Source of the DNA: Eledone cirrhosa | Taxonomy: Eukaryota | DNA length: 64,000 nt | Assembly: GCA_964016885.1 (NCBI GenBank) | Contig: OZ024743.1 | Location: 301,878,001 to 301,942,000, forward strand | Direction of reading: 5' to 3' | Shown: positions 12,421 to 63,994 of the stretch, piece by piece | Numbering within the stretch: position 1 is the first letter of the stretch | Layout: the number at the start of each line of letters is the position of its first letter | Made by a program: the position numbers and the translations under genes | The notes under the pieces: model-generated | Database searches by the model: none | What the model was told of the DNA's origin: nothing | Seen by the model: the letters and a program-made list of their open reading frames with translations, nothing else

Positions 12421-12994
12421 GCAACACAAATGTAATTGTGTCCGTTGTAACATGTCTACAATTACACCAAACTGACCTACCAAATTACCTATACTGAGTG
12501 AGATTATGTTACTATTTGAGGAATACCTGGGATTGGAAACATTTTCAGGGTGGACGATTTTGTATTGTGTCTGTGTAGATGAAATGAGAATAATGGACAG
12601 AAGGACTACATAGCATTATTTTCAAATGTGGCCCGAAATATATACCCCTTATCCTCAACGAATCTTCAAGGAATCTACTATTATTTACGCCTTGGCCCTC
12701 AACGTTTGATGCTAAAGCGGTTTGATTTGACTAGCGGAGAGTGTGTGGGAAATTACGAAAGCAACAATGGGCAGTATATTTATATCAGCTAAGTAGACAG
12801 TCACGCCTAAATATCTAGAAAAGAAATAAAGAGGAAACAATATCTAATACTGACAGAAAGAAAAACGATATATATATATATACATAAATATATGTACATA
12901 TATGTATATATATGATGAATTCTCCCGAATGAAACAGTTCTAGTCCTGTAGAAGCATTTTCTATATTATATATATATATATAAATATATATATG

Positions 12995-13113
<119 letters not shown>

Positions 13114-15729
13114 ACACGGGTGTGTATGATTGTGTATAGAAGATTATATTAATAAAAGGAATTCCAACTTTGTCTGATATACTCGTTTTATTTACAATCC
13201 TTTAAAATTTATAATGGTATTACAATGAAATAGTATCGTAGAATATTAAATGTTAATTGTTAATTGAACAAGTACTTTCATGCTTTCGCAATCTTCAGGT
13301 TCACAATGTGTGGTGACAGTCAAGTTTGCAATTTTCACTTGTAATGAGATAGGTAAATTGTGTGCCTTATATAAAGTGAAAAGGGGCTCCAGAATGCTAA
13401 ATATTGCAAACTGTATTTCGACCAATCGGTATGTAGTTTCACTGGATTACTAAAGCTGATTGGTTTAGGCGTCACGGTTGGTTGAGCATGTCTAACGACT
13501 ACTATTTGACCCTATCCAAAGCATCAATTGTTTTGCTATTTTTAGAAATGATAAAAATAGTATTTTCTAGTAATCATCACCATCAACATCACTGTTGTTA
13601 TTATTCTTGTTGTTGTTGTTGTTGTTAGTGGTCGTAGTCGACATGGTCGTAGTCATAGTCATAGTCAGAGTAAAACTCCATTATTATTGTTCATTTAGCT
13701 TGGGTTTGGATTTATCAATAACATTTTTTTCTTTGATTTTTCTTTTGATTTCAATTGGGCTGTGTAATTTGTAGAATACGAATATTATAAATATTCCCTG
13801 ACCACATGGTGCTAGATGGTTACTTAGGGGTATCTAACGGACATTTGGGTCTCTGATTTGCTGTCGGTGTACCCGTGCACGTTCCGATAGTGCATTTCCA
13901 GTTTGACCGACATATAGTTCTTCACAATTCGGGCATTTAATGCAGTGAATTAGATTTCTGCTTTGGCAGATCATATTTGCATTTGGGAATATCTTTCCAG
14001 TTTTTGTTTTCATATATTGACCGGTGTGTATGGATTGACATGTACCACATCGACTATCATTGCATTTAGATACAGTGAAGATTGGTCTTTGTTGTTAAGG
14101 TCAAACTTTGCTTTTGTTAGTAATTGCTTCACATTTTTGGGCTGTCTTTTACTAAGAGTCAAAGATCGATCTGTTATTAAGCCTTTTAATTCATTACTTT
14201 GAACAATGATCGGTAGGTTTGCATTGGCAGTGTTATACATATTCTGGTGACATGGGTTGTGTGTCATTATAAATGGTATGACCAGTTCTTGTTTTCTTCT
14301 TCCTTGGGTTGTCCTAACATGTTGTATAGGTATTTTTATAGCCCGATGTATGCCATTTTCTATAAGTAGAGATGGGTATTTTGGTTTTAGCAAACATTCT
14401 CTTAGTTCTTTTAGGCGTTTGTACCTGGTATTCGTATCTTCTACAATGGTACAAATTCTTCTGGCTAGGCAGTATGGGATGTTGCGTTTTGTATGAGGTG
14501 GATGGCACGACTTAAAATTCAGATATTGATGGGTGTCTGTGTGTTTATTATATATATCCGTGGTAATGGTGGTGTCGTTTTTGATATTCATTATATCTAG
14601 GAATGGTAATTTGGTACTACTCATCTCTTTTGTGAATTGGAGAGACGGGTGTAGGTTATTCAGGAGATATTATTTAAGTGCAGATATTTCTGATTTGTTA
14701 ATGTTTGGCCTGACATTTGCATTACGTCTAAGAGGACATTTTGATAGGATGTCAATGTATTGGTCCAGATAGATATGTCTTCCTTTTGGCGGAGTGAAAT
14801 TTTATTTATTATTTACTAGTGATTCATCACTACTAAAGAATAGATCCATACACGCCGGTCAATATATGAAAACAAAGACTGGAAAAATATTCCCACATCC
14901 AAATATGAACTGCAAAAGCAGAAATCCAATTTACTGCATTAAATGCCCGAATTGTGAAGAACTATATGTCCGTCAAACTGGAAATGCACTATCGGAACGT
15001 GCACGGGTACACCGACAGCAAATCAGAGACCCAAATATCCGTCAGATACCCTTAAGTAACCATCTAGCAACCTATGGTCAGGGAATATTTATAATATTCC
15101 CATTTTACAAATTACACAGCCCAAGTGAAATCAAGAGGAAAATCAAAGAAAAAAATGTTATTGATACATTCAAACCCAAGCTATATGAACAATAATAATG
15201 GCGTTATACTCCTACTATGACTATGACTACGACCATGTCGACTACGAACACTAACAACAACAACAACAAGAATAATAATAATAAAAGTGATGTTGATGGT
15301 GATGATTACCAGAAAATGGTATTTTCATCATTTCTAAAAATAGCAAAACAATTGATGCTTTGGATAGGGTCAAATAGTAGTCGTTAGACATGCTCAACCA
15401 ACCGTGACGCCTAAACCAATCAGCTTTAGTAATCCAGTGAAACTACATACCGATTGGTCGAAATACAGTTTGCAATATTTAGCATTCTGGAGCCCCTTTT
15501 CACTTTATATAAGGCACACAATTTACCTATATCATTACAGGCGAAAATTGCAAACTTGACTGTCACCACACATTATGAACCTGAAAATTGCGAAATCATG
15601 AAAGTATTCGTTCAATTAACGCTTAACATTTAATATTCTACTATAATATTTCATTCTAATACCATTATAAATTTTAAAGGATTGTAAATAAAACGAGTAA
15701 ATCAGACAAAGTTGAAATTCCTTTTATTA

Positions 15730-15731
<2 letters not shown>
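13114..15731 (-). mobile_element. Neptune-type Penelope-like element, 5'-truncated, with head-to-head inverted 3' arm
   Basis: Minus ORF 14010-14624 LPFLDI..TDIYNKHTDTHQYLNFKSCHPPHTKRNIPYCLARRICTIV (PLE RT thumb). GIY-YIG IYCIKCPNCEELYVRQTGNALSER on + at 14794-15195. 14845-15731 is an inverted copy of ~13147-14035. Flanked by (GA)n and (TA)n. Confidence 0.92.
13265..13303 (-). ncRNA. Minimal type I hammerhead ribozyme in pLTR
   Basis: tgaac-CTGAAGA-ttgc gaaa gcat-GAAA-gtac-TT-gttca; palindromic stem III AGTACT. Degenerate copy at 15576-15614; further copies at 44550-44588 and 44642-44680. Confidence 0.85.
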
Positions 15732-15808
<77 letters not shown>

Positions 15809-15818
15809 TATATATATA

Positions 15819-16468
<650 letters not shown>

Positions 16469-19375
16469 ATTAGTTAAGCTAAACAAGACCTCACATTTCA
16501 CAAGGAAGAGATTATTAAAAGATTGTCAACACATTTTAGTTTGATGTAAGGAATATAGAGAATAATAATAATAATAATAATATTAATAATAATAATGTCC
16601 GTTTACAATTGTTTCGCTACTCCATGTGATATTTCTGGATTAGATGACTATATATCATAATCGATCTGGTTCAGTTTAAATTAATTAACATATTTAAAAG
16701 ACAGAGCGGCTCATCGGAACTTCAGAGCAGTATAAATTAAATAATGAGAGAATGTTACAACTTCGTCAGGAGCATTAAATTTGAAAAGCATTATAGACTC
16801 AAGAATAATTTCCTCACTAAATTAGCAACAACTATAAAAAAAATTTAAAGATAGCCACCTCTTACATGTTATGTCTGACAAAACTAAAAGTCTATTCACC
16901 ATGACGCCTGAAAATTACAATTATTTCCTTCTTAAAGAACTCAATAAAAACTATAAAAAAACTATACCATCCAGTGTAAACGTACTTAACCGAAAAGCCC
17001 AGGCTTTGGTCAAGGACTTGCATCTAGAACAGATTTACCCACCCTTGTGAACCATCAACCCCAAGGTTCTCTCTCAAGTATCATAAGCCAAACTTTATAG
17101 AGAAACCATCTATTAGACTTATAAGCCCAGCCACATCTGACCTGGGCTGCATCAGTAAGAACATCTTTGATAGGATAATCCTTGGGCTACGGGATGATAT
17201 CACCTGCAAGTTGTGGTCCAACAGCAGCCAAGTCAGTAGATGGCTCTCCGATCTAAGGTCCAAGCAATCTATGAGGTTCATCCAATTTGGCATCGACAGC
17301 TATTACGTGTCAATAACCCCGGAACTGCGCAACAAAGCATTAACCCTAGCCAGCACCAACTCGGACATAGCCAATAATGAAATTAACATCATACTTATGG
17401 CTAGGCAGAGTATCATTGAATTCAACGGAGCACTCTGGACAAGAAAAGATAGAACATACAATATTGACATTACGATGGGCTCAAATGACTCCGCGCAAAT
17501 CACCGATTTAGTTGGAATTTACCTATTACATAAGATCAGAGCCGAAATCCAACCCTTGCAAGGCGGAATAAACAGGGACGACGCCCTATTTGCAATCCAC
17601 AATTGCACTAATCGGGGCATAGATTTGCTAAAAAAAACAATTACATACATTCTTTAAAAATAACGGTCTCTCTATCACCATCGAGCCGAACCATAAAGTA
17701 GTAAACTTCCTAGACGTCACCCTGGGTCTCAACAATTACCTATATTGCCCGTATCATAAACCAGGTGAAATACTCATATATATTAGCCCACACTCTAACC
17801 ACCCACCGGCAGTCATCAGAGCAGTAATCAAATCTATCTCGTATAGGATCTCAATGCTATCAGAAAATGAGTAGATATTTATAAACCATTCACAATATTA
17901 TAATAAGGCTCTTTCTGAATCTGGTTATGAACAATCAATTTCTTACATACCTAAATGCCATAACACAGCATTTCACCATAATAAATGTAACACTGGAACT
18001 AGAAATACCTTAGCATATATCCAGATTCGTGCGAAATTTAGCAGTAACAGCACCTATACAGGGAAGTTTAATGGTTGCAGCGGCCTGCTCCCCACTCCAA
18101 GTAGCAAACTAAAAATCAACCTTAGAATAGAAATGAGAAATGGAATGACAAATACAAATCCCCAGGTAATAATAACCCTAGGAAAGCCCCTACCAACTCC
18201 ACTAGAACCCCTAGAAGAAATAGACCTAGAAATATCACCTGCATTAACCCCCCATTCTCATTTAATGTAGCCACTAATGTCCCCACACGCTTCTTTTCTA
18301 TCCTATCTAAACATCCCCCCCCCCCGAACCATAGATATTACAAACTCTTTAATAAAAATAATATTAAAATCTCATTCTCCACAACACCTATCCTAGCTAG
18401 CCACATCGAATTCAGTAACCATCATAAACTAAGACAGTATAACTCCCACACCGCGGTACCACTACCCCTATCAAATACACCACGCCACTACACCAATAAT
18501 TACTCTAGTAGCACACCTCCCCCATCTAATCCTTCTAGCACTGACGTACTGCTTAGGTTAAACTACCCTACTCTCACTAACCGCAGAATCAACTGCAACT
18601 GCCGTTACCCCAATGCATGTCCATTAAATCGACACTGCCTGACACCCAACATAGTTTATAGGTGCACGGTTAAAACTGCTTCGAATACCAGCTCTTATAT
18701 CGGGTCTACCTCTAACCCTTTTAAGGTACGCTATAAAGCGCACTCTTTTTCCTTCCAAGACTCTAGCAACATATGTTCGACATCGCTAGCTAGGCTCATT
18801 AAAAACCTTAAATTGAACAAAATTCAACACTCACTAAAATGGTATATCGTAGCTGTATTATCGTAGCTCTGTATTACCGAAGCATATTACATAACTTTAT
18901 CACGACCTCTACCGATTAACGATAGAACGGAGGTAACTATTAGCTGTCAACATCGAAGGGGTAATTCCTTCACCAATAGAATATTTTACCCAACTTAGTC
19001 ATCTAGCCCCATTTTTAATTGTAGCTAATAAGTTAAATAGCTATGAACAACTTAGATAATTATAAGTTACCTCCCCTACATTGGTTCTCAATTAAAACAT
19101 TAAAATATTAGCACTTAACTATAAATACCCACAATTTCTAATCTCTCGAGGAGTTACTTCCTCTAAAACCACCCTCTAATTAGTAAGGTAAATATGTCCT
19201 TTGGCAACAATCTTGTTACCCATAGGCAGATCTCACACAATGCACCCTCGACAGATGAATACTGCTTGATTATGGCTGACAACTGATGCAACCAAGACAC
19301 CATAGTGAAAAACCAATATATGGAACATTATATTATGTAACATTATCTCATTATTTTAATTTATATTCCTTTGAA

Positions 19376-20749: not shown

Positions 20750-21280
20750 AATACTACTGTACGTCTGTATACATATATGTATGTACGTATACATACTTAT
20801 ATTTATATATATATAAATATAAGTATGTATACGTACATACATATATGTATACAGACGTACAGTAGTATGTATATACATACATACATGCACAAACAGCCCG
20901 AATTAGTAGCCGTACAGTGTTCGGCAACCATCGTTGCCTTTTTGTTCAACACTGACTAAGGAACGATGAACAAGTTTCTAGCTTGTAAGCTCTCATCAGC
21001 ACCGTCAGTCGATTGATCGTTGAAAGTATATACTTTCTTATGCATATTAACGGCTTAGCAGCCTAATTTGCATTTCTACTGAGTTAGTCGGCCGGGTGTA
21101 CGGAAAACGATAAATGGAAAAAATGAAATTTCATTTCTCAATCTTAGTACGGCTGATACTTAAATATAAGTGTGTATACGTACACACATATATGTATACT
21201 GACCTACACTAGTAGCCGTTAATATGCACAAGGAAAGCCGTACTTAGTGTGAGAAATGAAGTGTCATTTTTTCCATTTAT
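20750..21280 (-). mobile_element. Retrozyme-like family C copy with short inverted end
   Basis: Homologous to 25550-26560 and 29904-31103; HHR at 20963-21005 (acggtg-CTGATGA-gagcttacaagcta-GAAA-cttg-TT-catcgt). Confidence 0.8.
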
Positions 21281-21977: not shown

Positions 21978-22113
21978 TTATGAAAATAAACCAAAGAAGC
22001 CTTCAATACATCAAAAGTCTTTATTAACCAACAATGTTTCGTCTGAAATCGTTCATCAGAGGTTAAAAATGACTTTTGATGTATTGACGGCTTCTTTGGT
22101 TTATTTTCATAAT
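21978..22113. mobile_element. Small foldback element with a hammerhead-like motif in the spacer
   Basis: Arms ttatgaaaataaaccaaagaagcc..atcaaaagtc / gacttttgat..gcttctttggtttattttcataa; minus-strand spacer ttaacct-CTGATGA-acgatttcagac-GAAA-cattg-TT-ggttaa. Confidence 0.7.
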
Positions 22114-22222
22114 TCTTCGGCTCTGTTTAATTACATTGAGCTATACTGATACTGTCATTTCTATAATACGAAGAGGGTGTTTAACTCCAACACACTCTAG
22201 TATTTTAATTCTTATTTTAATT

Positions 22223-22293
<71 letters not shown>

Positions 22294-22718
22294 GAAGTAT
22301 TTATGTACATGTATGATACAGAGATATTTAAATGTGTAATAAACAACACAATACAATTATTCCATTTACCAAAGATTTCGCGAAGAGAGGTGAGCTAAAT
22401 AGAGACGTCTGAAATCGTTCATCAGAGGTTAATAATGAATAAGGATATAGGATATGAAATTAATAACAAAGGCTATTACAATTGAAAGCGAGGCTGAAAT
22501 AGAGTAAACATAAAAAAAAAACATGAAACGCATTAAAATAACGGGAAAAATATACACAATGATGCAGAACTTATGGTTAGTGTGTAAAAATAAATACATA
22601 TCTATCCACACACATATACGTACACATACACACACACACATACACAAACACACACGCATACACACACGCACACACACACGCACACACACGCACACATACA
22701 CACATACACACACACACA

Positions 22719-22938: not shown

Positions 22939-22940
<2 letters not shown>
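22749..22940 (+). mobile_element. Foldback element with 3' half of a hammerhead plus tail
   Basis: 22749-22862 is a palindrome; GAAA-cggc-ttgagttcg-gccg-TC forms a true stem III with GUC. The tail resembles 140-197. Confidence 0.65.
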
Positions 22941-22978
<38 letters not shown>

Positions 22979-23034
22979 TTGCAGATAGAGACAGAGTATG
23001 TAATGATCATGAAAGTTGGGAGAGATTGAGAGGA

Positions 23035-23401
<367 letters not shown>

Positions 23402-25482: not shown

Positions 25483-25549
<67 letters not shown>

Positions 25550-26562
25550 AATAGAACAAATGAAACGACATTTCATTTCTCATTCTTAGTACGGCTGTTA
25601 CTTAAATTTAAGTATGTAAACGTACATATGTATATGTATACAGACGTACAGTAGTATCTATATATATATATACATACATGCACACATATATATATATATA
25701 TGTACGTATGGATTTACCGAACATTTATTACAATGCCCGGTTTGTTTGTAAACAAACATCCCGAATTACGCCGTACAGTGTCTAGCAACCATCGTTGCCC
25801 TTTTGTTCAACACTGACAAAGGAACGATGTACTAGTTTCAAGCTTGTTCGCTATCGTCAGCACTGTATACTTTCCTGCCACGTGATTGAACGTCTGAAAG
25901 TATATTCTTTCCTTATGCATATTAACGACTGAGCAGTCTAATTTGCATATCGAGTGAGTTAATCGGCCGAGCGCACTGAAAACGATAAACGGAAAAAATG
26001 AAACGAAATTTCATTTCTCACTCTTAGTACGGCTGTTACTTAAATATAAGTATGTATACGTACATACATATATATATACAGCCGTACAATAGTATGTATA
26101 TATATATATATATACATACATGAACACACATATATATGTACGTATGGATTTATAGAACATTTATTATTTTCCATTTATCGTTTTCCATTTATTTTTTCCA
26201 TTTACGGTCTTCTGTGCGCCCGGCCGATTATCTCATTCGATATGCAAATGTGGCTGCTCAGCCGTTAATATGCATAAGGAAAGTATATACTTTCAGACGT
26301 TCAATCATCTGGCCGGAAGGTATACGGTGCTGACGATAGCTAATAATCCTTTGTCAGTGTTGAAAAAAAGGGCAACGATGGTTGCTAAACACTATGTGGC
26401 TTAATTCGGGATGTTTGTTTACAAACACACAGAGCATTCGAATAAATGTTCGGTAAATCCATACGCATATATATATATATATATATATGTGTGCATGTGT
26501 GTATATATATACATATGACCGTACGTTTGTATACATATATGTATGTACGTATACATACTTAT
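25550..26562. mobile_element. Retrozyme-like family C: ~1.4 tandem units (-) plus inverted partial unit (+)
   Basis: tgaaacga(c/a)atttcatttctca recurs at 25561 and 25999 (unit ~438 bp). HHR at 25824-25866 (-). Inversion at ~26168; the + arm HHR has an internal deletion. Confidence 0.85.
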
Positions 26563-26585
26563 ATATATATATATATATATATATT

Positions 26586-26992
26586 TCGTTTCTGAATTTG
26601 TTTAGCAAGATTCTTTATCTGAAATCGTGTGTTGAAACCGATATTGTTATACTTTGGGAGGGTCATGTTGCCAATAAGAAACACACGCACCAGTTGCTTC
26701 CACTTCAATTTATTATATATTTATAAATTTATAAATTTACAAATTTACAAACCTATAAATTTCTGGTTGGTTGGTTGGTTCCACAACCAGATAGTTGTTT
26801 ATATATACTCATAGTCCTTTCGTCACACACTCTGTGACCTCTTCAGTGACTGGGGATTCCTTTCCTTTGTTTCTGTGCCTTTCCTTTCTTCTATCCTACG
26901 CCATTTTGTTTCTGTGTGTGTGTTGTGTGCTCAGTTTGCGCATGCGCCACATCCGGGTGTCTGTGTGTGTTTGTGTTCATTTATCCATTTGT

Positions 26993-27023
<31 letters not shown>

Positions 27024-27540
27024 TTTTATTTATTTATTTATTTATTTATTGTTGGTTGGTTGTTTGTTCTATGTGTGTGTGTGTTTTCATTTTGTCCTGT
27101 GTGTGTTTTCAATTTGTCCTTAATTGTAGGTTGTTTGTTCTATGTGTGTGTGTGTTATCATTTTGTCCTGTGTGTGTTTTCATTTTGTCCTTAATTGTAA
27201 GTTGTGATGTTGCTGTTCCACTCATATCGGATGTGGCGTATGCGCAAACTGAGCACACAACACACACACAGAAACAAAATGACGTAGGATAGGAGAAAGG
27301 AAAGGCACAGAAACAAAGGAAAGGAATCCCCAGTCACTGAAGAGGTCACATAGTGTGTGACGAAAGGACTATGACTATATATAAACAACTATCTGGTTGT
27401 GGAACCAACCAAGCAACCAGAAATTTATAGGTTTGTAAATTTGTAAATTTATAAATTTATAAGTATATAATAAATTGAAGTGAAAGCAACTGGTGCGTGT
27501 GTTTCTTATTGGCAACATGACCCTCCCAAAGTATAACAAT
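26586..27540. mobile_element. Family B foldback element (~310-bp inverted arms, ~270-bp spacer, one-sided tail)
   Basis: 26642-26955 is the reverse complement of 27228-27540; hammerhead in both arms; (TA)n on both flanks. Confidence 0.88.
27332..27376 (+). ncRNA. Type I hammerhead ribozyme (family B)
   Basis: agtca-CTGAAGA-ggtcaca tagtg tgtgac-GAAA-ggac-TA-tgact; perfect 5-bp stem I; copies at ~26807-26851 (-) and 33874-33916 (+). Confidence 0.8.
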
Positions 27541-28579
27541 ATATATATATATATATACATACAAATGGATAGATAGATAGATAGATAGATATATAGATAT
27601 ATATATATATATACATACATATATACATACATACACACACATATGCACACACATACGCACACATACACACACACATATATAACTATATATATACATTCGT
27701 GTTCAATTGCTTATCATCGTCAACTGAATTCCTGAAAGTAAAATACATGTGTCTTTCTCGCAGTATGTCTTCTGTGTATTATTCAGACATCCATTTACTG
27801 TTCCGCCTTTATTGAATAACATCCACCTGGTTCTAAACCACTTCACATCCCAGACACGGGAAGATTCTTCACACATATCTTTAGCAATAATTCCTGTGGG
27901 AGTAAACTCCACCTAAATCCAAGATAACATTTTCTTGTGTACTCCACTTGCTACGACACATACAAAACTATTTACAACATCACGTCAGATCAATACACAT
28001 GCTCTTTCTCAGCTGCTTATTACAATTAAATGCGATCAGTAAATTACGTTAGATGTATCATGGGTTATTGAAAAGCGAACTTATTTGATGTAGAGAATTT
28101 TATCTTTTATTGTTATGTGAATAAGCAGCACATTTTGCTGAGTTTTTTTCTTTCCCACGTATTTTGTAACACAAACTATATTAAAAGGATAGTGGTGAAA
28201 GTAGTAAAATATAATTCCATGAAATGATGATGAATATATTTCTCTTGCTCACAGTAAACATATAATATGCTTTCAATAGGCTGTTATAATTATATAGTCA
28301 TTCTACCTTTTAAAGCGTGAAGATTCTTTGAAATATTTTACTACATTATGTTTGCATTTTATTATAGATTTCAATAACCACAATTTAATAACTTTTCAGA
28401 AAATGGTATAGTAAATATTTAAGGACTACAAATATACTCTATTTAAAGTGATTCAGGTAAGTTCAGAGATGTCCCCCCCCCCACACACACACATACGCAC
28501 ACGCATACATGCACATACAACCATACACGCTCACACGCAAAGACACAAGCACACACTGTGGGTGGGTGTCCGCATATGG

Positions 28580-29550: not shown

Positions 29551-29905
29551 TTTCTCCCTCATATAAAGAATTTGAAGACAATTCATTTTCAGCTGATGAG
29601 ATCAGTGATAATCGATCTATCTCTTATTGAAACATGTGACGTGATTAAATGATTGGAATTTTACCTTGCCTTCGGATTTTCATTTTGATACTTATACTCC
29701 GTTTTACATCATCTAGCTGTTCCATTGAATGGAATTGGAGATATACAAAAGCGTGGAGAACTTGTTAACATAAAGTTAGTGGACCATTTTACACAACAAA
29801 TAATTCACCTTACGATATAACCTATATAACATATGAGGGATTGAATTCTGTCAAAAAACATGTTTTTTTTTTCTCCCTCATATCAAGAATTTGAAGACAA
29901 TTCAT
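29551..29905 (+). mobile_element. ~320-bp partial-tandem unit with a degenerate hammerhead
   Basis: ~35-bp direct repeat ttctccctcatat(a/c)aagaatttgaagacaattcat at 29552 and 29871; inside, CTGATGA..GAAA-catg-T at ~29593-29637. Confidence 0.5.
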
Positions 29906-31103
29906 GAAACGAAATTTCACTTCTCACTCTTAGAACGGCACTTACTTAAATGTAAATATGTATGTATGTATACGTACATACATATATGTATACACACGTA
30001 CAGTAATATGTATATATATACATACATGCACACATATATATATATGCACGTATCGCTTCCCGAACATTTATTATAATGCCCGGTGTGTTTGGTTGTAAAC
30101 AAACAAACAGCACGAATTACGCCGTACAGTGTTTAGGCAACCAGGTCATTTTTTTGTTCAACACTGACACAGGAACGATGTACTAGTTTCAAGCTTATTA
30201 GCTATCATCAGCATCGTATACCTTCCTGCCAGCTGGTTGAACGTCTGAAAGTATATACTTTCTTTTTGCATATTAACGTCTGAGCAGCCTAATTTGCATA
30301 TCGAGTGAGTTCAGTCGGCCAGGCACACCTTAAACAATAAATGTAATAGAATGAAACGAAATTTCATTGCTCACTCTTAGTACGGCACTTACTTAAATTT
30401 ATGTATGTATGAATGTATACGTACACACATCTTCCCTGTGTCAGTGTTGAACAAAAAGGTAACGCGGTGTCCTAAACACCGTACGGCGTAATTAGGCCTC
30501 TTTGTTTGTTTACAGACAAACAAACCGAGCATTCTAATAAATGTTCGGTAAACCGATACGTGCATATATATATATATATGTGCATCTATGTATATATATA
30601 CATACTACTGTACGTATGTATACATATATGTATGTAAGTTTACATACATACATACTTACATTTAATTAAGTGCCGTACTAAGAGTGAGGAATGAAATTTC
30701 GTTTCATTCTATTCCATTTATCGTATTCGGTGTGCCCGGCCGACTGAACTCACTCGATATGCAAATTAGGCTGCTCAGCCGTTAATATGCATAAAGAAAG
30801 TATATACTTTCAGACGTTCAACCATTTGGCAGGAAGGTATACGATGCTAACGATAGCCAATAAGCTTGAACATAGTACATATTTCCTGTGTCAGTTTTGA
30901 ACAAAAAGGTGATGTGATTGCCTAAACACTGCACGGCGTAATTCGGGCTGTTTGTTTGTTTACAAACAAACAAATCGAGCATTATAATAAATGTTCGGTA
31001 AACCGATACGTGCATATATATATGTGTGCATGTATGTATATATACACATACTACTGTACGTCTGTATACATATATGTATGTACGTATACATACATACATA
31101 CTT
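29904..31103. mobile_element. Retrozyme-like family C: ~1.2 units (-) joined head-to-head to ~1.5 units (+)
   Basis: Unit 447-450 bp (atgaaacgaaatttc at 29904 and 30351; cat..ttcc..tgtgtcagt at 30428 and 30878); no real ORF. Confidence 0.88.
30175..30217 (-). ncRNA. Intact minimal type I hammerhead ribozyme (family C)
   Basis: acgatg-CTGATGA-tagct aata agctt-GAAA-ctag-TA-catcgt; perfect 6-bp stem I, palindromic stem III ACTAGT, GUA triplet. Confidence 0.9.
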
Positions 31104-31126
31104 ATATATATATATATATATATATA

Positions 31127-31213
<87 letters not shown>

Positions 31214-31288
31214 ATATATATATTTATATATATATACATATATTTATATATATATTTACATATATATATAAACTATATATATATATTT

Positions 31289-33447
<2,159 letters not shown>

Positions 33448-33707: not shown

Positions 33708-33745
<38 letters not shown>

Positions 33746-33752
<7 letters not shown>

Positions 33753-34140
33753 ATACTTTGGGAGGGTCATGTTGCCAATAAGAAACACACGCACCAGTTG
33801 CTTTCACTTCAATTTATTATATATTTATAAATTAATAAATTTACAAATCTACAAACTTATAAATTTCTGGTTGGTCACTGAAGAGGTCACAGAGTGTGTG
33901 ACGAAAGGACTATGACTATATATAAACAACTATCTGGTTGTGGAACCAACCAACCAACCAGAAATGTATAAGTTTGTAGATTTGTAAATTTATAAATTTA
34001 TAAATATATAATAAATTGAAGTGAAAGCAACTGGTGCGTGTGTTTCTTATTGGCAACATGACCCTCCCAAAGTATGACAATATCGGTTTCAACACACGAT
34101 TTCAGATAAAGAATCTTGCTAAACAAATTCAGAAACGAAA
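33746..34140. mobile_element. Family B foldback element; + arm starts at the hammerhead
   Basis: 33746-33873 is inverted relative to ~33955-34083; the + arm begins gtcaCTGAAGA at 33874. A more diverged fragment follows at 34165-34340. Confidence 0.85.
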
Positions 34141-34340
34141 TATATATATATTCATATATATATATCGTTTCTGAATTTGTTCAGCAACATTCTTTATCTG
34201 AAAACGTGTGTTGAAACCGATATTGTTATACATTGGTAGGGTGATGTTTCCAATAGAAACACACGCACCAGGAGCTTTCACTCCAATTTAATTATAAATT
34301 AAATTTATAAATATAAGGATTTATAAATGTTCGGTTGGTT

Positions 34341-37719: not shown

Positions 37720-39649
37720 TTTAGATTTTCAGAGGCCTGAAAACGTAACGATAAGTTTAGGAAAAAGGTTCTGTAGAGAACAACACAATTCCAAAGCCTA
37801 CTTCTTGACAGTGTACTTGATAGAATTATACCTGAAATTAGAAGTTTAGCCCCTCTTGCACTGTGGAACAATTCTTTCGCGGTGATTGATTGGTTCAACG
37901 GCATATGTAACAAGGAACATTGCCGTTTTATCCAATTCGACATCAACAATTACTACTCCTCCATCACTTTACCACATCTCCTTAGAGCTATCAATTTCGC
38001 TAAAACACTCACAGTGGTTAAAGATTTCGAAGTTGATGTCATCCTCAATGCCCGAAAGTCGGTGATTAATTTCGACGACTCTGTTTGGATTAAAAATCCA
38101 ATAGTACCCTATTCGACGTGAGTATGGGCGCCAGTGATTCTGCGGAGGTTACTGATCTTATCGGCCTTTTCCTTCCTATCTGTATCAAGGACGAATTCCC
38201 CAATGCGGGCGGTGGTTTGTACCGTGACGATGGTCTTTTGACCATGACTAAGTGCGGACCTCGTGCTTGCGACAGGTTCAGAAAAGAACTCACAGCCTTC
38301 TTTAAAGGCTTCAACATCTCTATACAGGTTGAGGCCAATCTCTCGGTCGTTAATTACCTTGACGTTACCCTCAATTTATTGAATGGGTTGTATTACCCGT
38401 ATAGAAAGCCGAATGATACGCTTAATTACATAAGTAAGCATTCCAACCAACCTGTCAGCATAGCAACAACCTGGTAAGAAACGTTTCGTTGAGGCTTTCC
38501 CGTCTTTCCACCAACGAGCGTATTTTCAACGACCATTCCACTTATTACAATGAAGCTCTTGCTCGAAGTGGATTTGTCGATAAGGTAGCATATACAGAGT
38601 ACGAAAATATACCTAGAAGAAATAGATCCCGTTGCATTTGTTGGTATAACCCACCATATAATATGGAGGTGGCCACACCATTAGCTAAGATCTTTATTTC
38701 CCTTATTACGAAGCATGTTCCCCCTACACATAAATATAGTAAATGTTTTAATAGAAATACTATTAAAATGTCTTACTCTACGACTCCTTACCTTGCACAT
38801 AACATCAAAGCTTCAAATTTAGCTAAACTACCTAGCCGTAGGAACACGTGCAACCCTGTAGTTAGTACTAACTGTAATTGTAGGAAGCGGGTTGATTGCT
38901 CCCTTTCCGGGAAATGCCTCTCCAGTAACATTGTCTATAAATGTAAGGTTGTAACACCCACGTCCCGTAGGGCCTACATGGGGTTAACGGCCAATAGATT
39001 CAAGCAGCGTCTTTACACGCATACCCATTCTTTTCGTTACCCTCTAAGAAGGAATATGACGTCACTTTCAGCTTATATCTGGAGTCTAAAAGACAACCAC
39101 ACCTAATATAAGTTACACTGGGAGACCCTAGCTAGGGCTAGATCGTATAACGGAAATAAAAGACCATGTGACCTAGCGCCGCTGAGGCCCTGGAAATACT
39201 CTACGCGACAGACCACATCTTAAACTGAAAATCTGAGGCAATTTCGGCTTGTAAACATAAATTGCACAAAACTTTCCTGTATTACAGCCCCAAGTTATAC
39301 CCTAACGGATAGTACGATCTATACGTGGATATTTTACGTCTTGATATGGGAGCTAATTTTATGTTTTGTTTATACCATTACTTATTTGCATATCGAACGT
39401 TTCTACGAACCAAAGTATCGTCTTCCTGTCTTACTCCGGTTGCAAAGTTTTTTGAAATATCCACTTCTGCGTTTACAGATTGACTTTGTTAGTTTCAGAA
39501 GATCCCGTTAAGGGTGAAAGCAGCGATTTTTTGCTTAAACTTTAATCTGTTTATTTGAATAAATATTTGCCCTACGGTTCTTATATATTTTATATATATT
39601 TATCCTTACCGAGCCCTCTTTGGATTTTAGTCTTGAAATTTATTATTAT

Positions 39650-41641: not shown

Positions 41642-41992
41642 ACTAAATAAATTAGAGAAATTATTTAGCCTAATAGTGGACTTAAGAACCCACGGAGAAA
41701 TGGAAAAAAGATGCGTATTGACGTACATGGGAGTCGAACCCACATCTTTGATTATCAAGACCACTGTGCTACCAGTTACACCAACAATTGAAGCACAGTG
41801 GTTTGGATAACCAAAGATGTAGGTTCGACTCCCATGTACGTCAATACTCATCTTTTTTCCATTTCTCCGACGGTTCTTAACCCCACTATCAGACTAAATA
41901 TTTTCTCCAATGTCATTAGTCATAATACGGCGATAGCTTACATTTATAATAATTTCAAAACTCTCGCTCGCTGATTCGAAAATATTATTACA
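41642..41992. mobile_element. tRNA-derived element in head-to-head foldback arrangement
   Basis: Minus arm: TGGTGTAACTGGTAGCAC (A box/D arm)..gtggg TTCGACT cccat (B box/T arm)..TTTTTT. The + arm 41792-41910 is its inverted copy and continues with a tail to (TA)n. Confidence 0.75.
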
Positions 41993-42169: not shown

Positions 42170-42848
42170 ATTAAAATACAAATATTAATAAAATAGATGT
42201 TCTTTTGATCAATTACATTTTATTATACATATTTCGGATGCACAACAGTACGTCCTCATCAGACAAAATAAAAATGATACATGACATACCCTCAGATGTT
42301 AAATGGTTAAGATTTAATCAAGGTGGTGATTAAACTAAGACCAAATTTAACATCTATACCCTAATAATGAGAACATGCGAAAACGTAATAAATTCAATAG
42401 AGAATGAGTGATTAAGAAAAACGTTGCTTAATGTAACAGTTATAGAGATTTTTAAATGTATGATACTAGAATTTATGTTTATCTAGGAAAACATTTCATG
42501 AATTATAACAGGCAATGAGAGCCACTGTTGAATTTATTACGTTTTCGCATTTTCTCGTTATTAGGGTATAAGTGTTAAATTGTCTCTTAGGTTAATCACT
42601 ACCTTGATTAAATGTTAACTATTTACCATCTCAGGGTATGTCATGTATCATAATATTATGTCTGATGTAAACGTACCGTTGTACATCCGAAATATGAATA
42701 ATAACATGTAATTGATCAAAAAAACACGTATTTTATACATATTTGTATTTTAATATTAATAACTCTGGAAAACTATTTTTCGTAGAGTGCTTCCAATCTA
42801 CTGTAAAACTCATTCTCTTTGATATGCTCATTGCATCTTGTTTAACTC

Positions 42849-42855
<7 letters not shown>
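42170..42855. mobile_element. Foldback mini-element with hammerheads (~230-bp arms, ~125-bp spacer, ~100-bp tail)
   Basis: 42170-42400 is inverted relative to 42526-42755. Minus-arm HHR ~42222-42268: CTGATGA-ggacgtac tgtt gtgcatcc-GAAA-tatg-TA. Confidence 0.8.
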
Positions 42856-42945
<90 letters not shown>

Positions 42946-42989
42946 TAACAGATAAAAGTTTGAGCAAAGAATGTATATATATATATATA

Positions 42990-43395
42990 TTAGAAAATGA
43001 GGTTTTTTTTACACAATGAAAAATAACCGAGATGTCCTACACGAGTAAAAGTATAAAGAAAACAGGAAGAAATTGAACATGCAACTGGAGTCTTATTTTT
43101 AAAATAATATATATATTTATTAGGCTCCTTTACCGGTTTCGCAGTTCTTCTGCTTTTCTGTATTTATTTCTGCTTGGTACGGGTATTTTCTTTGTAGAAA
43201 TATACACATGTTGTTTCTGCATGATGAATATAAGTCAATGGAATGCTTAACCAGTGGAGCCATGAAAGCAGCAATACTTTGCTTAAACTTTATTGGTTAT
43301 TTTAATAAATATTTGCTCTTCGGTTCTTATATATTTTATATATATTCATCCTTATCGAGCCCTCTTTGGATTTTAGTCTTCACATTTATTATTAT

Positions 43396-44328: not shown

Positions 44329-44380
<52 letters not shown>

Positions 44381-44400
44381 TAGTTAGATATATAAATATA

Positions 44401-44793
44401 CACGGGTGTGTATGATTGTGTATAGAAGATTATATTAATAAAAGGAATTCAACTGTGTCTGATTTATTCGTTTTATTTACAATCCTTTAAAATGTATAAT
44501 GGTATCAGAATGAAATATTATGGTAGAATATTAAATGTTAAGTGTTAATTGAACAGGTACTTTCATGCTTTCGCAATCTTCAGGTTCATAATGTGTGGTG
44601 ACAGTCAAGTTTGCAATTTTCTTGACTGTTACCACACATTATGAACCTGAAGATTGCGAAAGCATGAAAGTACTTGTTTTAATTAACACTTAACATTTAA
44701 TATTCTACCATACTATTTCATTCTTATACAATTATACATTTTAAAGGATTGTAAATAAAACGAGTAAATCAGACAAATTTTGAATTCCTTTTA

Positions 44794-44797
<4 letters not shown>
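44401..44797. mobile_element. Foldback mini-derivative of the Neptune PLE at 13114-15731; hammerhead in each arm
   Basis: 44401-44620 matches 13114-13335; 44621-44797 is the inverted copy lacking the ~33-bp tail. Confidence 0.9.
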
Positions 44798-44849
<52 letters not shown>

Positions 44850-44867
44850 TATTTTGAATTCCTTTTA

Positions 44868-44968
<101 letters not shown>

Positions 44969-45887: not shown

Positions 45888-47528
45888 TTGTTCAATGTCT
45901 GTACATATATTTGACCTCCTATCCAACGCAAGAGACGTACAGATACATATATATATATATATTGATGTACATATATCATACTATACTATATGTGTACAGC
46001 ATTCAAAATCAAAGTCAAAATTAAAATTAAAATTAAAATTAAAATTAAAATTAAAATTAAAATACATTCGGCAGATATCACAGATACTGTTGAGCTGAGA
46101 TACATTAAATTACCAGTATGCTGATCAAATACCAACTTCCAATGTCAACCAAGAACATACCAATACCCTCCAAAGATACATACGAGAAATTATTGATCAA
46201 TAGTGTCAACTCCTTTATCAATAGAGTGAGATGGATGACATTCCATTATGATAAAAACAGATCTAACAAATTTGATGATACTAACTAAATCGACTCCTTC
46301 GGCTTTAAAACGTTTAGAAGACCCCTCTCAACACACTACTAAACTCTTTTGAAAATGACCTAATAAAACTAGTTAAGAACATTAAATACAAAAATCATCG
46401 TAATAGAAACAACACCTTCTTAAACAAACATAACTCCTCTATTAATGGATTCAAAACAAGTAGTAAAATGATTATGCATGCGGACAAAACTAATAAGATA
46501 TACAGCATAGATTATGATACATATAGAAAGTTTATATATAATGAACTACACAAGAACTACAAGAAAACTACTATGAAAAACATAGATGATATTAATTTGG
46601 AAGGCCGTAATATAGTGTCCAAACTGGGACTTCAGAGACATACACAACCATACACCCCGAAGCCCCCTAGATTCCCACTGAAGGATCATCAGGAGGATTT
46701 CATTAGTAACCCTTCGATTAGACTAATCTGCCCTTCCAAGTCTGACATTGACATTATCAGTAAGAATATTTTAGATAAATTCATCCCACAGATTAAACAC
46801 AAAATATACTTTAAACAGTGGGGAAATGCGGGCGAAGTTATTGAATGGTTTAAGGATATCAAGGAAAACAAAAATAAAAAATGTATTCAGTTTGATATCA
46901 ATTCATACTACACCTCTATTTGCCCTATCCTATTAAATAAGGCACTAATTATGGCCATGAACAATAGTGACCTGACAAGACCCCAGATTGATGTCACACT
47001 TGCGGCACGTAAAACCGTAATCACTTTTGAAGATCAGTTATGGACCCGCAAGGATACACATACAACTTTGACATAACCATGGGATCTAGTGCCTCGGCGC
47101 AGGTCACTGATGGGGTGGGCCTATACCTACAAAACAAAATCCATAAGGACCTACCATACCTCAACGGTGGTTTATACCGCGATGATGCACTACTCCTTAT
47201 AGACTATAACACATTTAATATAGAAAGGACTAGCAGCCTATTGCATAAGACTTTCAAAAACTATGACATAAGTATCACCATAGACAACAACACTAAAAAC
47301 GTTAACTTCCTTGATGCCACCCTTTACCTAGAAATAAATACACCATTCCATAAACCTAACGAAAAACTAATTTACGTAGATACCAAGTCTAAGGACTCTA
47401 GATCAATATGAAACTCTATATCTAAAGGAATATCCAATAGAATCTCTAATCTATCTTATGACGAAATCATATTTAGCAAAAACTCACAATACTATAATCA
47501 GGCATTAGCTAGATCAGGTCATAATAAT

Positions 47529-47713
47529 TGTTTCTACTTTAGGCACAAGGCCAGCAATTCACCAGTGCATTACTGGTACTTTATTTTATCGATCCCGTAA
47601 GGATGAAAGGCAAAGTCAACCTCGGCGAGATTTGAACTCAGATCGTAAAGGGACATAACTATGCTGGAAAGCATGGCATCCGACCCTCCACCGATACTGC
47701 CAATCCACCGCCC
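47529..47713 (-). mobile_element. SINE inserted in the PLE ORF with an 18-bp TSD
   Basis: Flanks agatcaggtcataataat (47511-47528) and agatgaggccataataat (47714-47731). Confidence 0.9.
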
Positions 47714-50509
47714 AGATGAGGCCATAATAATGAGATCGAGTTCCTACCTATTAAAACACATAGTTACAACATTATTTCTCACAATATGTCCATGAGCAAA
47801 AATAGTAATAAGAGTAATAACCACACACACACACTAATACGAAGGGTAGCAACAAACGTAACTCACACCAGAGAAGACACCAAAATACCATAAACGAAAA
47901 CACGTCAACAAATATAAAAATCAAAAATAGAAGAACTAATACATTTTCAACCCCCCTTTGAATCTAAACGTCTCAACCAACCTACCTAACGCTTTCTTCT
48001 CATCCTGGATAAAAAACTTCCCATCTGGCCACAAGTACCATAGTCGTATAAATAAAAACACCATTAAAATCAGCTACTCTACAACGCCTAACATAGCATA
48101 TCACATAGCTAGTAGCAATAAAAGAAAGATTAATACTTACTTTCAACAAACTAAAATACAGCAGGGGGTAAACTTTCAAAACAACGTAATATCTGCAAAC
48201 TCTGATATCAATAGTAATAATAGTAATAACACTAATGAAATCAATAACATTGGGAGCGACATTGCCCATAGTCATAATGCAATACCTAGCAACCAGACTT
48301 CTACACAACATAATAACCGACAGGTTAACATCCAAAATAATTGTAACTGTAGATCTAATAGAACCTGCCCTTTAGATAAAACTGCTTAATCAAGGACATC
48401 CTCTACTCATGCACGGTCAGAACTAGCAACTCTTCTGAAACCTATATAGGCTCTACTTCGAACTGCTTCAAAACCAGATACAATTCACACCTCCATTCTT
48501 TCAAAAAACACAGTCTAGCCGTCTCCACTTCACTATCTAGCTACATACACTATCTGAAATCTAGAAGTAGATCATGTACACTTCAATGGGAAGCGATAGG
48601 TAAATCGTCATCGTACAGACCACCTAATAAATTATGTAACCTCTGTCTACTAGAGACCCATACTATAATCTTCTCGAACCTTAACCTCCTTAATAACAAA
48701 TCGGAAGTGTTTGCGTCGTGTCAGCACCGCTTCCGGCACTCCTTCCAAAACTTTAAACCCAATATATAACAATGTGAGACTTGACCCCATCACCGCTTCT
48801 AACATCACACCTCAAGGGCATGCCTTACTCTACTACACCACAGTCTCTGATCCACCCCTCCCTCAACACAAATCATTCTACCTATCTATAACTTTATACC
48901 CTAGAAATATCCCCATAAACACCAACTTTTAATATAATTACTATCAATTACTTATACGTATATAGTGATATAAATCTAATACAGTCTATATAAACTTTAA
49001 ATACTAGATACGGCAGTGAATTATATATGTGATTGTAATTAAATATATGGAGTAATAACATTATATATATATAGGATTAATTTATTAACATAAGGGATCT
49101 GTCTAACCTATATGTAGGGTGGTGCAATGAATTATATATGAATTATATATGCATGTATAACTTGATGGATAGATTAATGACATTGTAAATGAGGGATGTA
49201 TTTGTCTACCCAAGAGATGTATTTGGTTTTGTCATGCAAACAGCCATACGCTGTTCCATAACTTACCAGGGGCTATGTAGACAACATTTTAATAGGTCCT
49301 CTGATATGTTTTGAGAGTAGACTGTATTTACAGTGAACTTTGATATAAATATATAGCACTTTGTATGAAAAATTCAATTATAGGACTATATAATAAAGAG
49401 TAATCAACTTCCTATAGATACCTTTAATACATTATGATAGAGTAGACTGTATTTAAAATTGAAAATTAGATATAAATATATAACCTTTCATATAAGAGAC
49501 TCAATTGAGGCCCCATATAATGTATGTTAGAACAATGCATTTAGTTATGAGAATCAGCTAGTTACCTCCCCTAACGCAATAACTCCCCTTAATTACACTC
49601 CTACTTCCGGGTAATAAACCACTGTAGATTCTCGCAGCAGAAATAACCTATTCTATAAATATGGATTAAATAATACTGAGCCTCAATACGGTACAATAAT
49701 GTAATGCATCAAACATTCAATACGGAATCATCGTAACTTATGTGATGGATGTAAATACTATATTTCCCTTTTCTGAATGTGAAAATGGTGGTGGATGAGA
49801 AAACTATAACTTTCTTTTTCTTTTTCTTTTTCTTTTTCTTTTTCTTTTTCTTTTTCTGCACACATACTTTTTTTATCTATACAAAATATACCCTACCACT
49901 ACAACCACCATAATACTCTTGCTTACCCGCTTAAAGTGCTTGCATTACATGTAACACCTTGCCACACAATAATCGTAGATAAATGAGACACACTTGCATG
50001 CTCCATGTGTAACTAACGCATACACTACCTACTAGAATTGACTATCAAACTAGTCTCTTGCATTATCTGTGTTATCTGCCGAATGTATTTTAATTTTAAT
50101 TTTAATTTGGATTTCGATTTTGAATTTGAATTGCCGTACAAATATAGTATAATATATGTCACTCTACTGTACATCAATATATATATATATATACATGTAT
50201 CTGTACGTTATTTGCGTTGGATAGGAGGTCAATTATATGTACAGGCATTGAAAAATGCTCCGAAGGCTCTAAGCCTAGGTTTGGATGAAACAATTGTAAG
50301 TGAATAAATGCTTTGAACATAGCTTTGACTCTTGTGAATCCTATATAAATGCTCTGTAGAACAACTGATGTTATTACATTGAGCTATTTATCTTACTGGT
50401 AATAGGTAGTAATAAATTACTGACCTTCCCTGTTTATAGGTTAAAATATACATAACTATAAATAGTATCCTTAATATTATATATATATATGTATATTAAT
50501 ACATACACG

Positions 50510-50820: not shown

Positions 50821-53390
<2,570 letters not shown>

Positions 53391-53432
53391 TAACTACATA
53401 TATATACATATATAACTACATATATATATATA

Positions 53433-53787
53433 TAAAGAAAAAGAGATGAAATCGAAAATGCAACTGGAGTCTTATTTTTTTTTTAAATATATATATTTAT
53501 TTGGTTCCTTTACCAGTTTCGCAGTTCTTCTATTTATCAAAAGTAGAGTTGAGATGGAGGGTCTGTGGTTTTTCTCACATCTGTGAGAAAACCACAGACC
53601 CTCCATCTCAACTCTACTTTTGATAAGTAGAAGAACTGCGAAACTGGTAAAGGAACCAAATAAATATATATATATTTCAAAAAAAAATAAGACTCCAGTT
53701 GCATTTTCGATTTCATCTCTTTTTCTTTATACTTTGACTCGTGTAGGAAACCTCGGTTATTTTTCAATTTGTTAAAAAAAACATCAC

Positions 53788-53794
<7 letters not shown>
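53433..53794. mobile_element. Family A foldback element
   Basis: 53433-53578 is the reverse complement of ~53583-53730 (centre ctcacatctgtgag); the + arm runs on to the family 3' end and (TA)n. Confidence 0.88.
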
Positions 53795-53855
<61 letters not shown>

Positions 53856-61872: not shown

Positions 61873-62360
61873 GTATATATGTGTGTGTAAGTGTTTAAAT
61901 GTGTGTGTATATATATGTGTGTGTAAGTGTTTTTGTATGTGGCTGTGAGTATGTAAATATATTTTATTCTTTCCATCCTGTGGCTTGTATGTTAAGTTGA
62001 CCACTCACCCCAGTCTGTGCCATGATTCGGTCTTGTTAAATGTTTAACTTCTATTACCAACCCACCTAAATTTCCCTACTATTTACCTGTTGAATTACTA
62101 TTCTTGGGGTTTTTATTGATTTATTTTTATTGATTTATTTTTTATTTATTTTATTTATTTATTCTTTTACCTATTTATTTATTTATTTATTTACTTATTT
62201 ATTTATTTCAAAAAAGCACTCTGGCTAATTGACCACTCCCCAAAGAAAAAAACGCCCTGTACCATGAAGTGGTCCGGTGTACCTAAATACCCCCACCCCT
62301 CCACAAACCCTCCCTTACCACTACCTAAATGTATATATACCTGAACTTAATATGACACCC

Positions 62361-62411
62361 AGCTTCCTGAAGATTTCATCTGAATGAAACAGTACTAGTC
62401 CTGTAGAAGCT
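62361..62411 (+). ncRNA. Intact type I hammerhead ribozyme (family E)
   Basis: agcttc-CTGAAGA-tttca tc tgaat-GAAA-cag tactagtc ctg-TA-gaagct; followed by a ~90-nt tail to (TA)n at 62500. Partial copy at 12913-12968. Confidence 0.88.
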
Positions 62412-62498
62412 CCTTCTATAAAATAAATTTTGTTTTACTCTGCCATGTATTGAGTACCTTACTTACTGTGGTTATCCCCGACTCAACCCGGGACCTAC

Positions 62499-62630
<132 letters not shown>

Positions 62631-63353: not shown

Positions 63354-63518
<165 letters not shown>

Positions 63519-63723
63519 GTTTTAATATAGATGTGATTCTACAGAACTAGAACTGTTTCAATCTTTAGAAATCACCAGAAATCTCTGATTCCTGATGATG
63601 TCTAAAGAATGAAACAGTTATTGACCTGTAGAATCTCATTTATATTAAAACTCTTATACTCTGCAATGTATATTGAGTACCTTACTTACTGTGGTTACCT
63701 CCGATTCAACCCCGAATAACGTA

Positions 63724-63726
<3 letters not shown>
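63519..63726. mobile_element. Family E foldback element
   Basis: 63519-63583 is inverted relative to 63587-63652; HHR 63587-63635 gattc-CTGATGA..GAAAcag..ctgTA-gaatc; tail on the + arm only. Confidence 0.85.
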
Positions 63727-63766
<40 letters not shown>

Positions 63767-63994
63767 GTACGTTAATCCGGGTTGAATCGGAGGTAACCAC
63801 AGTAAGTAAGGTACTCAATACATAGCAGAGTATACAAGTTTTAATATAGATGAGATTCTACAGGACTAGAACTGTTTCATTTATTAGAAATCATCAGGAA
63901 TCTGGCATTTTTATTTTTTGATACCCAGATTCCTGATGATTTCTAATGAATGAAACAGTTCTAGTCCTGTAGAATCTCATCTATATTAAAACTA
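63767..63994. mobile_element. Family E foldback element with two intact hammerheads
   Basis: HHRs at 63853-63903 (-) and 63927-63977 (+): agattc-CTGATGA-tttc taat gaat-GAAA-cag ttctagtc ctg-TA-gaatct; tail on the minus arm only. Confidence 0.9.

Follow-up and report, generated by a model that had tools for sequence, protein, structure and literature searches.

One arm of a head-to-head insertion of a hammerhead-bearing repeat begins at the position where the ribozyme encoded by that repeat would cut its own RNA, and we regard the chances that this junction is a true cleavage end, the footprint of a self-cleaved RNA, as evenly balanced. Here, we describe the insertion, which lies in a 64,000-nt stretch of DNA (the window), and set its breakpoint beside those of related copies in the window and in public reads; its architecture and coordinates, the ribozyme motif and the scatter of breakpoints are direct observations. 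The element and its layout are of known kinds, and ribozyme-set 5′ junctions are known for R2. One junction cannot settle the matter, and in the few others sampled the breakpoints are scattered, with no more than a shoulder past the cut; on present evidence we are dealing with an ordinary retrozyme insertion of the Penelope-like element (PLE) type. The account towards which we lean, by a little, is a twin-primed PLE insertion in a family with mostly scattered breakpoints, a minority of which perhaps derive from cleaved RNA.

The eukaryotic DNA of the window is rich in AT and in microsatellites (GC 32%). The insertion, locus L3, is built from a 447-450-nt repeat (family C) and spans 29904-31110 in two head-to-head arms, with the following features (monomer position 1 is N1.1 of the hammerhead).

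29551..29905, left flank: unrelated 319-nt unit with a 36-nt direct repeat at its borders
29904..30430, minus strand: minus arm, monomer positions 198-447 then 1-277
30175..30217, minus strand: intact type I hammerhead, cut between 30181 and 30180
30427..30430, inversion junction: ACAT in both arms across the cleavage position, or 5 nt if 30426 is included
30428..30877, plus strand: plus arm, full monomer from N1.1
30847..30883, plus strand: internal hammerhead, decayed and read through, with its cut position at 30877/30878
30878..31110, plus strand: plus arm, partial second monomer (1-234), ending into (TA)n
31111..31348: (TA)n tract at the plus-arm 3′ end, followed by an unrelated long-inverted-repeat element
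31381-31885 and 32896-33403: arms of that element, right of the L3 (TA)n and unrelated to L3

The arms form a 374-nt inverted repeat flanking a 197-nt loop. Because they share diagnostic variants against the two other family C loci of the window, L1 and L2, and differ from each other by 8-15%, L3 appears to be a single old event and not a chimera, with both arms probably drawn from one source. The plus arm mismatches the monomer at +5 and +7, the +5 variant being present in both plus-arm units (including that at 30878) and absent from the minus arm. Comparison of the flanks found no target-site duplication at L3, where the right flank is (TA)n split by the other element. That element (31350-33420) has terminal inverted repeats of ~500 nt with 110-nt subrepeats, is inserted in the (TA)n, and has ends that recur at 198-578, 22940-23337, 42853-43158 and 53431-53851. 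On the left, the 319-nt unit carries CUGAUGA...GAAAC without a hammerhead fold, adjoins the family C tail with a 2-nt overlap and could belong to the L3 insertion.

The hammerhead of the minus arm (C3 30211, H17 30181, N1.1 30180) has a GUA cleavage triplet, a 6-bp helix I, CUGAUGA, a 4-bp helix II with a basal U.U, GAAA and a palindromic mini helix III. This is the canonical metazoan type I pattern (CUGANGA / GAAA / NUH, 6-bp helix I, 4-bp helix II and a 1-2-bp palindromic helix III), in the layout given in the available text of PMC4209133. A descriptor scan of the window returned 11 distinct core positions, against 0.1 per shuffle (30 shuffles), with a descriptor that overlooks family D, which has a bulged helix II and whose cut site was placed by motif. 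The Rfam hammerhead models gave no match at the gathering score and none among the best 150 of 197 matches at E<=5, a scan dominated by microsatellite matches to miRNA models. A dimer with intermolecular helix III has a computed energy of -44.2 kcal/mol, as opposed to -44.4 kcal/mol unconstrained, and weak, dimer-dependent cleavage is typical of such motifs according to the available portions of PMC7229834 and PMC4209133. Monomer positions +1..+18 are predicted to form the 3′ strand of an extended helix I hairpin. In the plus arm, the hammerhead at 30878 is decayed (CUAACGA, GAAC-A, mismatches in stems I and II).

In reads from two organism labels, no other part of the repeat is as well conserved as the hammerhead: in the best 40 of 208 variant rows, the sole one within 30151-30228 falls on N7, and in organism B read depth reaches its maximum over the hammerhead core. 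As judged from these sequences, the family C ribozyme looks selected. Family C hammerheads are intact in all three minus-strand copies (20999, 25860, 30211) and broken in both plus-strand copies (26330, 30847), a bias that could be fortuitous, or could arise if self-cleavage within a plus-strand host transcript were selected against.

A tandem unit with one hammerhead, the lack of an ORF and a very high copy number together indicate that family C is a non-LTR retrozyme. No ORF of at least 90 codons passing the complexity filter occurs in L2 or L3, and the family accounts for 6410 contigs in the set X1, 62463 reads in X15 and 56803 reads in X16, with three loci in 64 kb. Metazoan non-LTR retrozymes, in the available text of PMC7229834 and 10.64898/2026.07.22.740005, likewise consist of GC-poor tandem units of 150-450 bp, each with a single type I hammerhead, that lack an ORF, occur in very large numbers and share the genome with PLEs; the family C helix III resembles that of axolotl HHR_Amex1, and the U.U at the base of helix II that of HHR_Amex2. 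As far as those texts extend, they describe tandem arrays and circular RNA templates, the latter being the published retrozyme model (PMC7229834), whereas family C, known here from DNA, forms head-to-head insertions and suggests, in a minority of its copies, a template whose 5′ end is defined. An 18-nt family motif hit 50 metagenome and 4 viral loci, none of which aligned over more than 33 nt, so that 0/54 were accepted as family members, and a 23-nt family motif had 0 matches in genome_contigs and 0 in viral_contigs. A search of the mostly non-subscription literature found no published map of retrozyme or PLE inversion joints onto the hammerhead site.

Alignment of the plus arm with the monomer starts at 30427/30428, which is N1.1 (-1/+1), and the earlier note was therefore right to place its start at ~30428, at the equivalent of the cleavage site. 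The next cleavage site does lie 450 nt further on, at 30878, but as a position and not as a functional site, given its decayed core. The 'cat' microhomology proposed at the joint consists of bases that are indeed shared, although the overlap is longer, namely the 4 nt ACAT straddling the cut, and probably TACAT, 5 nt, if the mismatch at 30426 is restored as in the paralogous copies. Since ACAT spans the scissile bond, the breakpoint can be placed only to about -2..+4, the first base exclusive to the plus arm being +4. The chance that a random arm start falls in a 5-nt window is 1.1% for one arm and 6.5% for any of 6 family arms, and the monomer offers 7 sites with at least 4 nt of microhomology to the L3 plus-arm end, the cut site among them. 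The L3 start is unusual, yet not far past chance once selection is counted.

The breakpoints of other copies were compared in two ways. Within the window, the starts of 18 arms or fragments were placed relative to the cut site of their own family (C, D, E or F); most lie upstream of the ribozyme, with 1/7 at the cut in family C (the L3 plus arm) and 0/11 in families D, E and F. Beyond the window, two contig sets and two RAD (restriction-anchored) read sets were aligned to the L3 minus arm, to which the reads are mostly 90-95% alike (share of words 0.21; organism A may not be the window's species). Twelve of the best 15 of 75 joints connect opposite strands, and two of these, 30119/30359 and 30148/30360, were left out as tail-to-tail. 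The geometry of the other ten was inferred from side lengths: in 9/10 the length of the short side matches the distance to an AATT site, which indicates a head-to-head joint, the tenth being less sure. These ten, drawn from the best 15 of 75, lie at +90, +61, +10, +9, +4, -16, -22, -42, -50 and -61, that is, none at -2..+3, three at +4..+10 and five upstream of the cut, the last implying templates that were uncut. X15 and X16 share the same joints and belong to one study, and so are not independent. The tail-to-tail joint 30148/30360 is present in the two RAD runs as well as in a deep X1 contig, possibly as an amplified rearranged subfamily. A peak of loose ends at 30359/30360 (X15, X16), considered as a fixed 3′ end, was rejected: it coincides with an AATT site, at which molecules end too, and may represent ligation chimeras.

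If 30% of arms began at the cut, 0/10 joints there would have a probability of 0.03 (0.35 if 10% did), and a sharp family-wide peak is therefore disfavoured. None of the best 24 of 1002 loose ends falls at the cut, and depth across it in X15 falls smoothly, without a step (8972, 8408, 8207, 8019), though read-through arrays may dominate that depth. The peak at N1.1 expected by the earlier note is thus absent in its strong form, with 0/10 read joints at -2..+3 and 1/18 window arm starts at the cut. Three of ten joints within +1..+10 have P 0.013-0.047 (10-nt window, three uniform spans), in a window chosen post hoc, and the +4..+10 excess has P 0.04-0.24 with 15-20-nt windows. Such a shoulder could stem from trimmed ends of cleaved RNA, as in R2 (PMC3774820, available portions), and also from reverse transcriptase (RT) stalling in the helix I hairpin.

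The head-to-head layout is found in 3/3 family C loci of the window, and in other hammerhead families there. The two sister loci are as follows.

25547..26575, L2, head-to-head: arm starts about 107 and 267-284
20751..21280, L1, head-to-head: junction 21214, arm starts 173 and 347 (then 242)

The 3′ ends lie at 291 and about 234 in both, those of L2 running into (TA)n, and every family C locus has one end at ~234 and one at 277-291, so that a tail of ~57 nt sits on one arm; 6/7 examined 3′ ends run into TA-rich repeats, the exception being the L3 minus end. One arm start per locus lies close to the partner's 3′ end (198 versus 234 in L3, ~284 versus 291 in L2, 242 versus 234 in L1), a distance of ~8-36 nt in each locus, as twin priming on one multimeric RNA predicts. 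Under twin priming, the L3 minus arm, with its longer 3′ end or 'tail', is the non-inverted arm and the plus arm the inverted one, whose start is a candidate RNA 5′ end; the inverted arms of the three loci start at +1 (L3), +107 and +173. The L2 plus-arm hammerhead has a 19-20-nt deletion across its cut site (~-14..+6, at 26346) without clear microhomology, and reads contain a 24-nt back-jump over -16..+8 (30196 to 30173) that also spans the cut. Both are weak cases, and possibly jumps across cleaved RNA.

Inverted hammerhead repeats of several other kinds populate the window. Family D (26584-27545, 33745-34339) has a CUGAAGA core, a bulged helix II and inverted pairs, with two arm starts at +43 and +61. 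Family E forms an inverted solo pair at 44360-44963 and also ends a decayed PLE-like element at 13074-15833, which has 889-nt inverted arms and ORFs that are RT-thumb-like and weakly GIY-YIG. Family F (62353-62543, 63494-63993, 12913-12993) has a hammerhead with a longer helix III, head-to-head and tail-to-tail joints and an optional ~80-nt tail, and all 6 of its starts that are mapped or visible group a short way upstream of the core (five of them mapped, at -38 to -53). Family G (15960-16440) is hammerhead-like and a near-perfect fold-back of the self-priming type, with a palindromic junction at ~16245. Single hammerhead-like motifs occur on the minus strand at 42207-42270 (C3 42262, 8-bp helix I, AUA triplet) and at 21980-22430 (C3 22059, inside a long hairpin). 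Decayed RT-like ORF runs, Penelope-like by eye and one with a weak GIY-YIG, lie at 17028-18863, 37777-39103, 46318-48766 and 52085-53415, and a partial tRNA match in Rfam (41727-41783, minus strand, 32.1 bits) is perhaps a SINE head or a pseudogene.

The closest parallel to the family C layout is found in endonuclease-positive PLEs. The available text of PMC8557442 and PMC3846280 gives an inverted 5′-truncated copy, a one-sided tail and microsatellite bias as PLE marks, and these sources, with those parts of PMC11167929 and PMC4209133 at hand, match family C in the head-to-head orientation of that copy, the tail at one end, the targets in microsatellites or AT-rich DNA, priming at internal sites, joints with microhomology and opposite-strand hammerheads 100-700 bp apart. 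The differences are a tail of 30-40 nt against ~57 nt in family C, and the missing RT/GIY-YIG ORF in the latter. A purified PLE enzyme, as described in the available sections of PMC11167929, nicks and extends both strands, prefers AT-rich DNA and has two internal start sites, which delimit the tail. The same sections report that the PLE PAc uses mainly uncleaved RNA, that cleavage is dispensable in vitro, and that RNA-seq gave 0 reads ending at the ribozyme site; with cleavage dispensable and no RNA ends left, PAc differs from the footprint reading of family C. In the window itself, Pfam gave weak, below-cut-off GIY-YIG matches in 2/14 ORFs and an unrelated weak match in one, NCBIfam had no match for 4/4 ORF remnants, and the PLE-like remnants were recognised, weakly and below the bar, among animal HTH clusters. 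These remnants share no family C sequence, and no autonomous partner carrying family C sequence was found within the window. Twin priming of L1 elements, attributed to Ostertag and Kazazian (2001), reportedly also gives head-to-head arms with a small overlap or gap and microhomology at the joint. Family C differs from it in the absence of poly(A), the tandem template, the fixed internal priming sites and the (TA)n targets. For a cut that sets the template's 5′ end, the established case of a genomic self-cleavage footprint is R2 with its HDV-like ribozyme (PMC3774820, available portions), where chance-microhomology joints likewise vary by a few bases. Both ribozyme class and enzyme differ there, and the R2 cut as a rule coincides with, or lies close to, the end of full-length copies, as opposed to a minority at most, and at an inversion joint, in family C.

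Taken as a PLE-type event, L3 would have arisen when a putative Penelope-like RT-endonuclease copied the retrozyme into an AT-rich site and primed on both DNA strands. The first cDNA would have begun near monomer 277-291 and stopped at 198; the second would have begun at 234, at least one unit upstream on a multimeric RNA, passed one hammerhead site and ended at ~+1, whereupon the two cDNA 3′ ends may have annealed via ACAT/TACAT and been filled in to give the head-to-head arms. The enzyme, the twin priming on a single RNA and any cleavage in vivo are what we infer. The template switch put forward in the earlier note survives only as annealing to antisense cDNA, the sequence past the joint being sense and of the same strand; its view that cDNA ran to the 5′ end of a self-cleaved RNA fits the arm geometry, the plus arm being inverted and its end one that can be an RNA 5′ end, which favours cleavage, but not the breakpoints elsewhere, which mostly scatter. 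Counting against cleavage, the L3 molecule was read through two hammerhead sites, one still intact, and two internal sites left uncut would be in line, by analogy, with weak, dimer-dependent cleavage and with the mostly unprocessed RNA of PAc. Most templates would on this account be uncut multimers or circles with scattered stops, and a minority may be self-cleaved linear RNAs. That the joints of the family record both classes, uncut templates in the scatter and cleaved linear RNAs at +1 to +10, we hold to be possible and somewhat doubtful.

A PLE-type insertion from uncut or circular RNA, in which the cDNA dropped off in the helix I hairpin and was joined at ACAT with the cut irrelevant, is a credible explanation that we nonetheless think probably wrong. 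The cut is one of seven sites with at least 4 nt of microhomology to this arm end, and even without that bias any of six arms would hit the window with a chance of 6.5%; 17/18 window arm starts lie away from the cut, the extended hairpin could stall RT and explain the +4..+10 joints, PAc transposes in vitro independently of cleavage, and circular templates are published (PMC11167929 and PMC7229834, in the parts available). Coincidence fares less well with the fact that the match sits in the very arm and end that twin priming predicts, with three of ten read joints (from the best 15 of 75) close by on the 3′ side of the cut and the nearest joint upstream 16 nt off, and with the L2 deletion and the read back-jump, which also span the cut. 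At the other extreme, the ribozyme cut could set arm starts as a rule, in the manner of R2; the L3 junction, the conserved ribozyme and the R2 precedent of a cut-set 5′ junction (PMC3774820, available text) speak for this, and the empty interval at -2..+3, the smooth depth and the 5/10 joints upstream make it very improbable.

The inversion itself might have formed otherwise, by fold-back self-priming, the cDNA end annealing to itself at 30628 and copying back, or by the fusion of two insertions through deletion. The inverted repeat around its loop has the expected shape, self-priming has been proposed for PLE inversions (PMC3846280, available portion), and the palindromic junction of family G is of that kind. 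The minus arm, however, reaches monomer 277, past the plus-arm end at 234, and so cannot be a full copy of the plus arm, and it lacks the +5 variant of both plus-arm units, while the shared diagnostic variants and a layout recurring at 3/3 loci argue against two insertions; we consider this pair of origins improbable. An assembly or amplification chimera is scarcely conceivable: assembly is difficult where inverted repeats adjoin long (TA)n, and the L3 junction is absent from the best 15 of 75 joints, but the arms have diverged too far for a fresh chimera and similar joints are present among the raw reads from two DNA runs.

The twin-primed PLE insertion to which we lean bears on a question described as open in the available text of PMC8557442, PMC7229834 and PMC11167929, namely the role of the hammerhead in PLEs and retrozymes and whether their template is circular or linear. 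High copy number, frequent inversions and fixed priming sites lend the family to a test from DNA only, in which the end of each inverted arm samples a template 5′ end. If two classes of joint are borne out, they would amount to a record, written in the genome, of germ-line hammerhead cleavage, and a Penelope-like RT would be seen to twin-prime cleaved, linear RNA, in conflict with the circular-template model and with the dispensability of cleavage in vitro.
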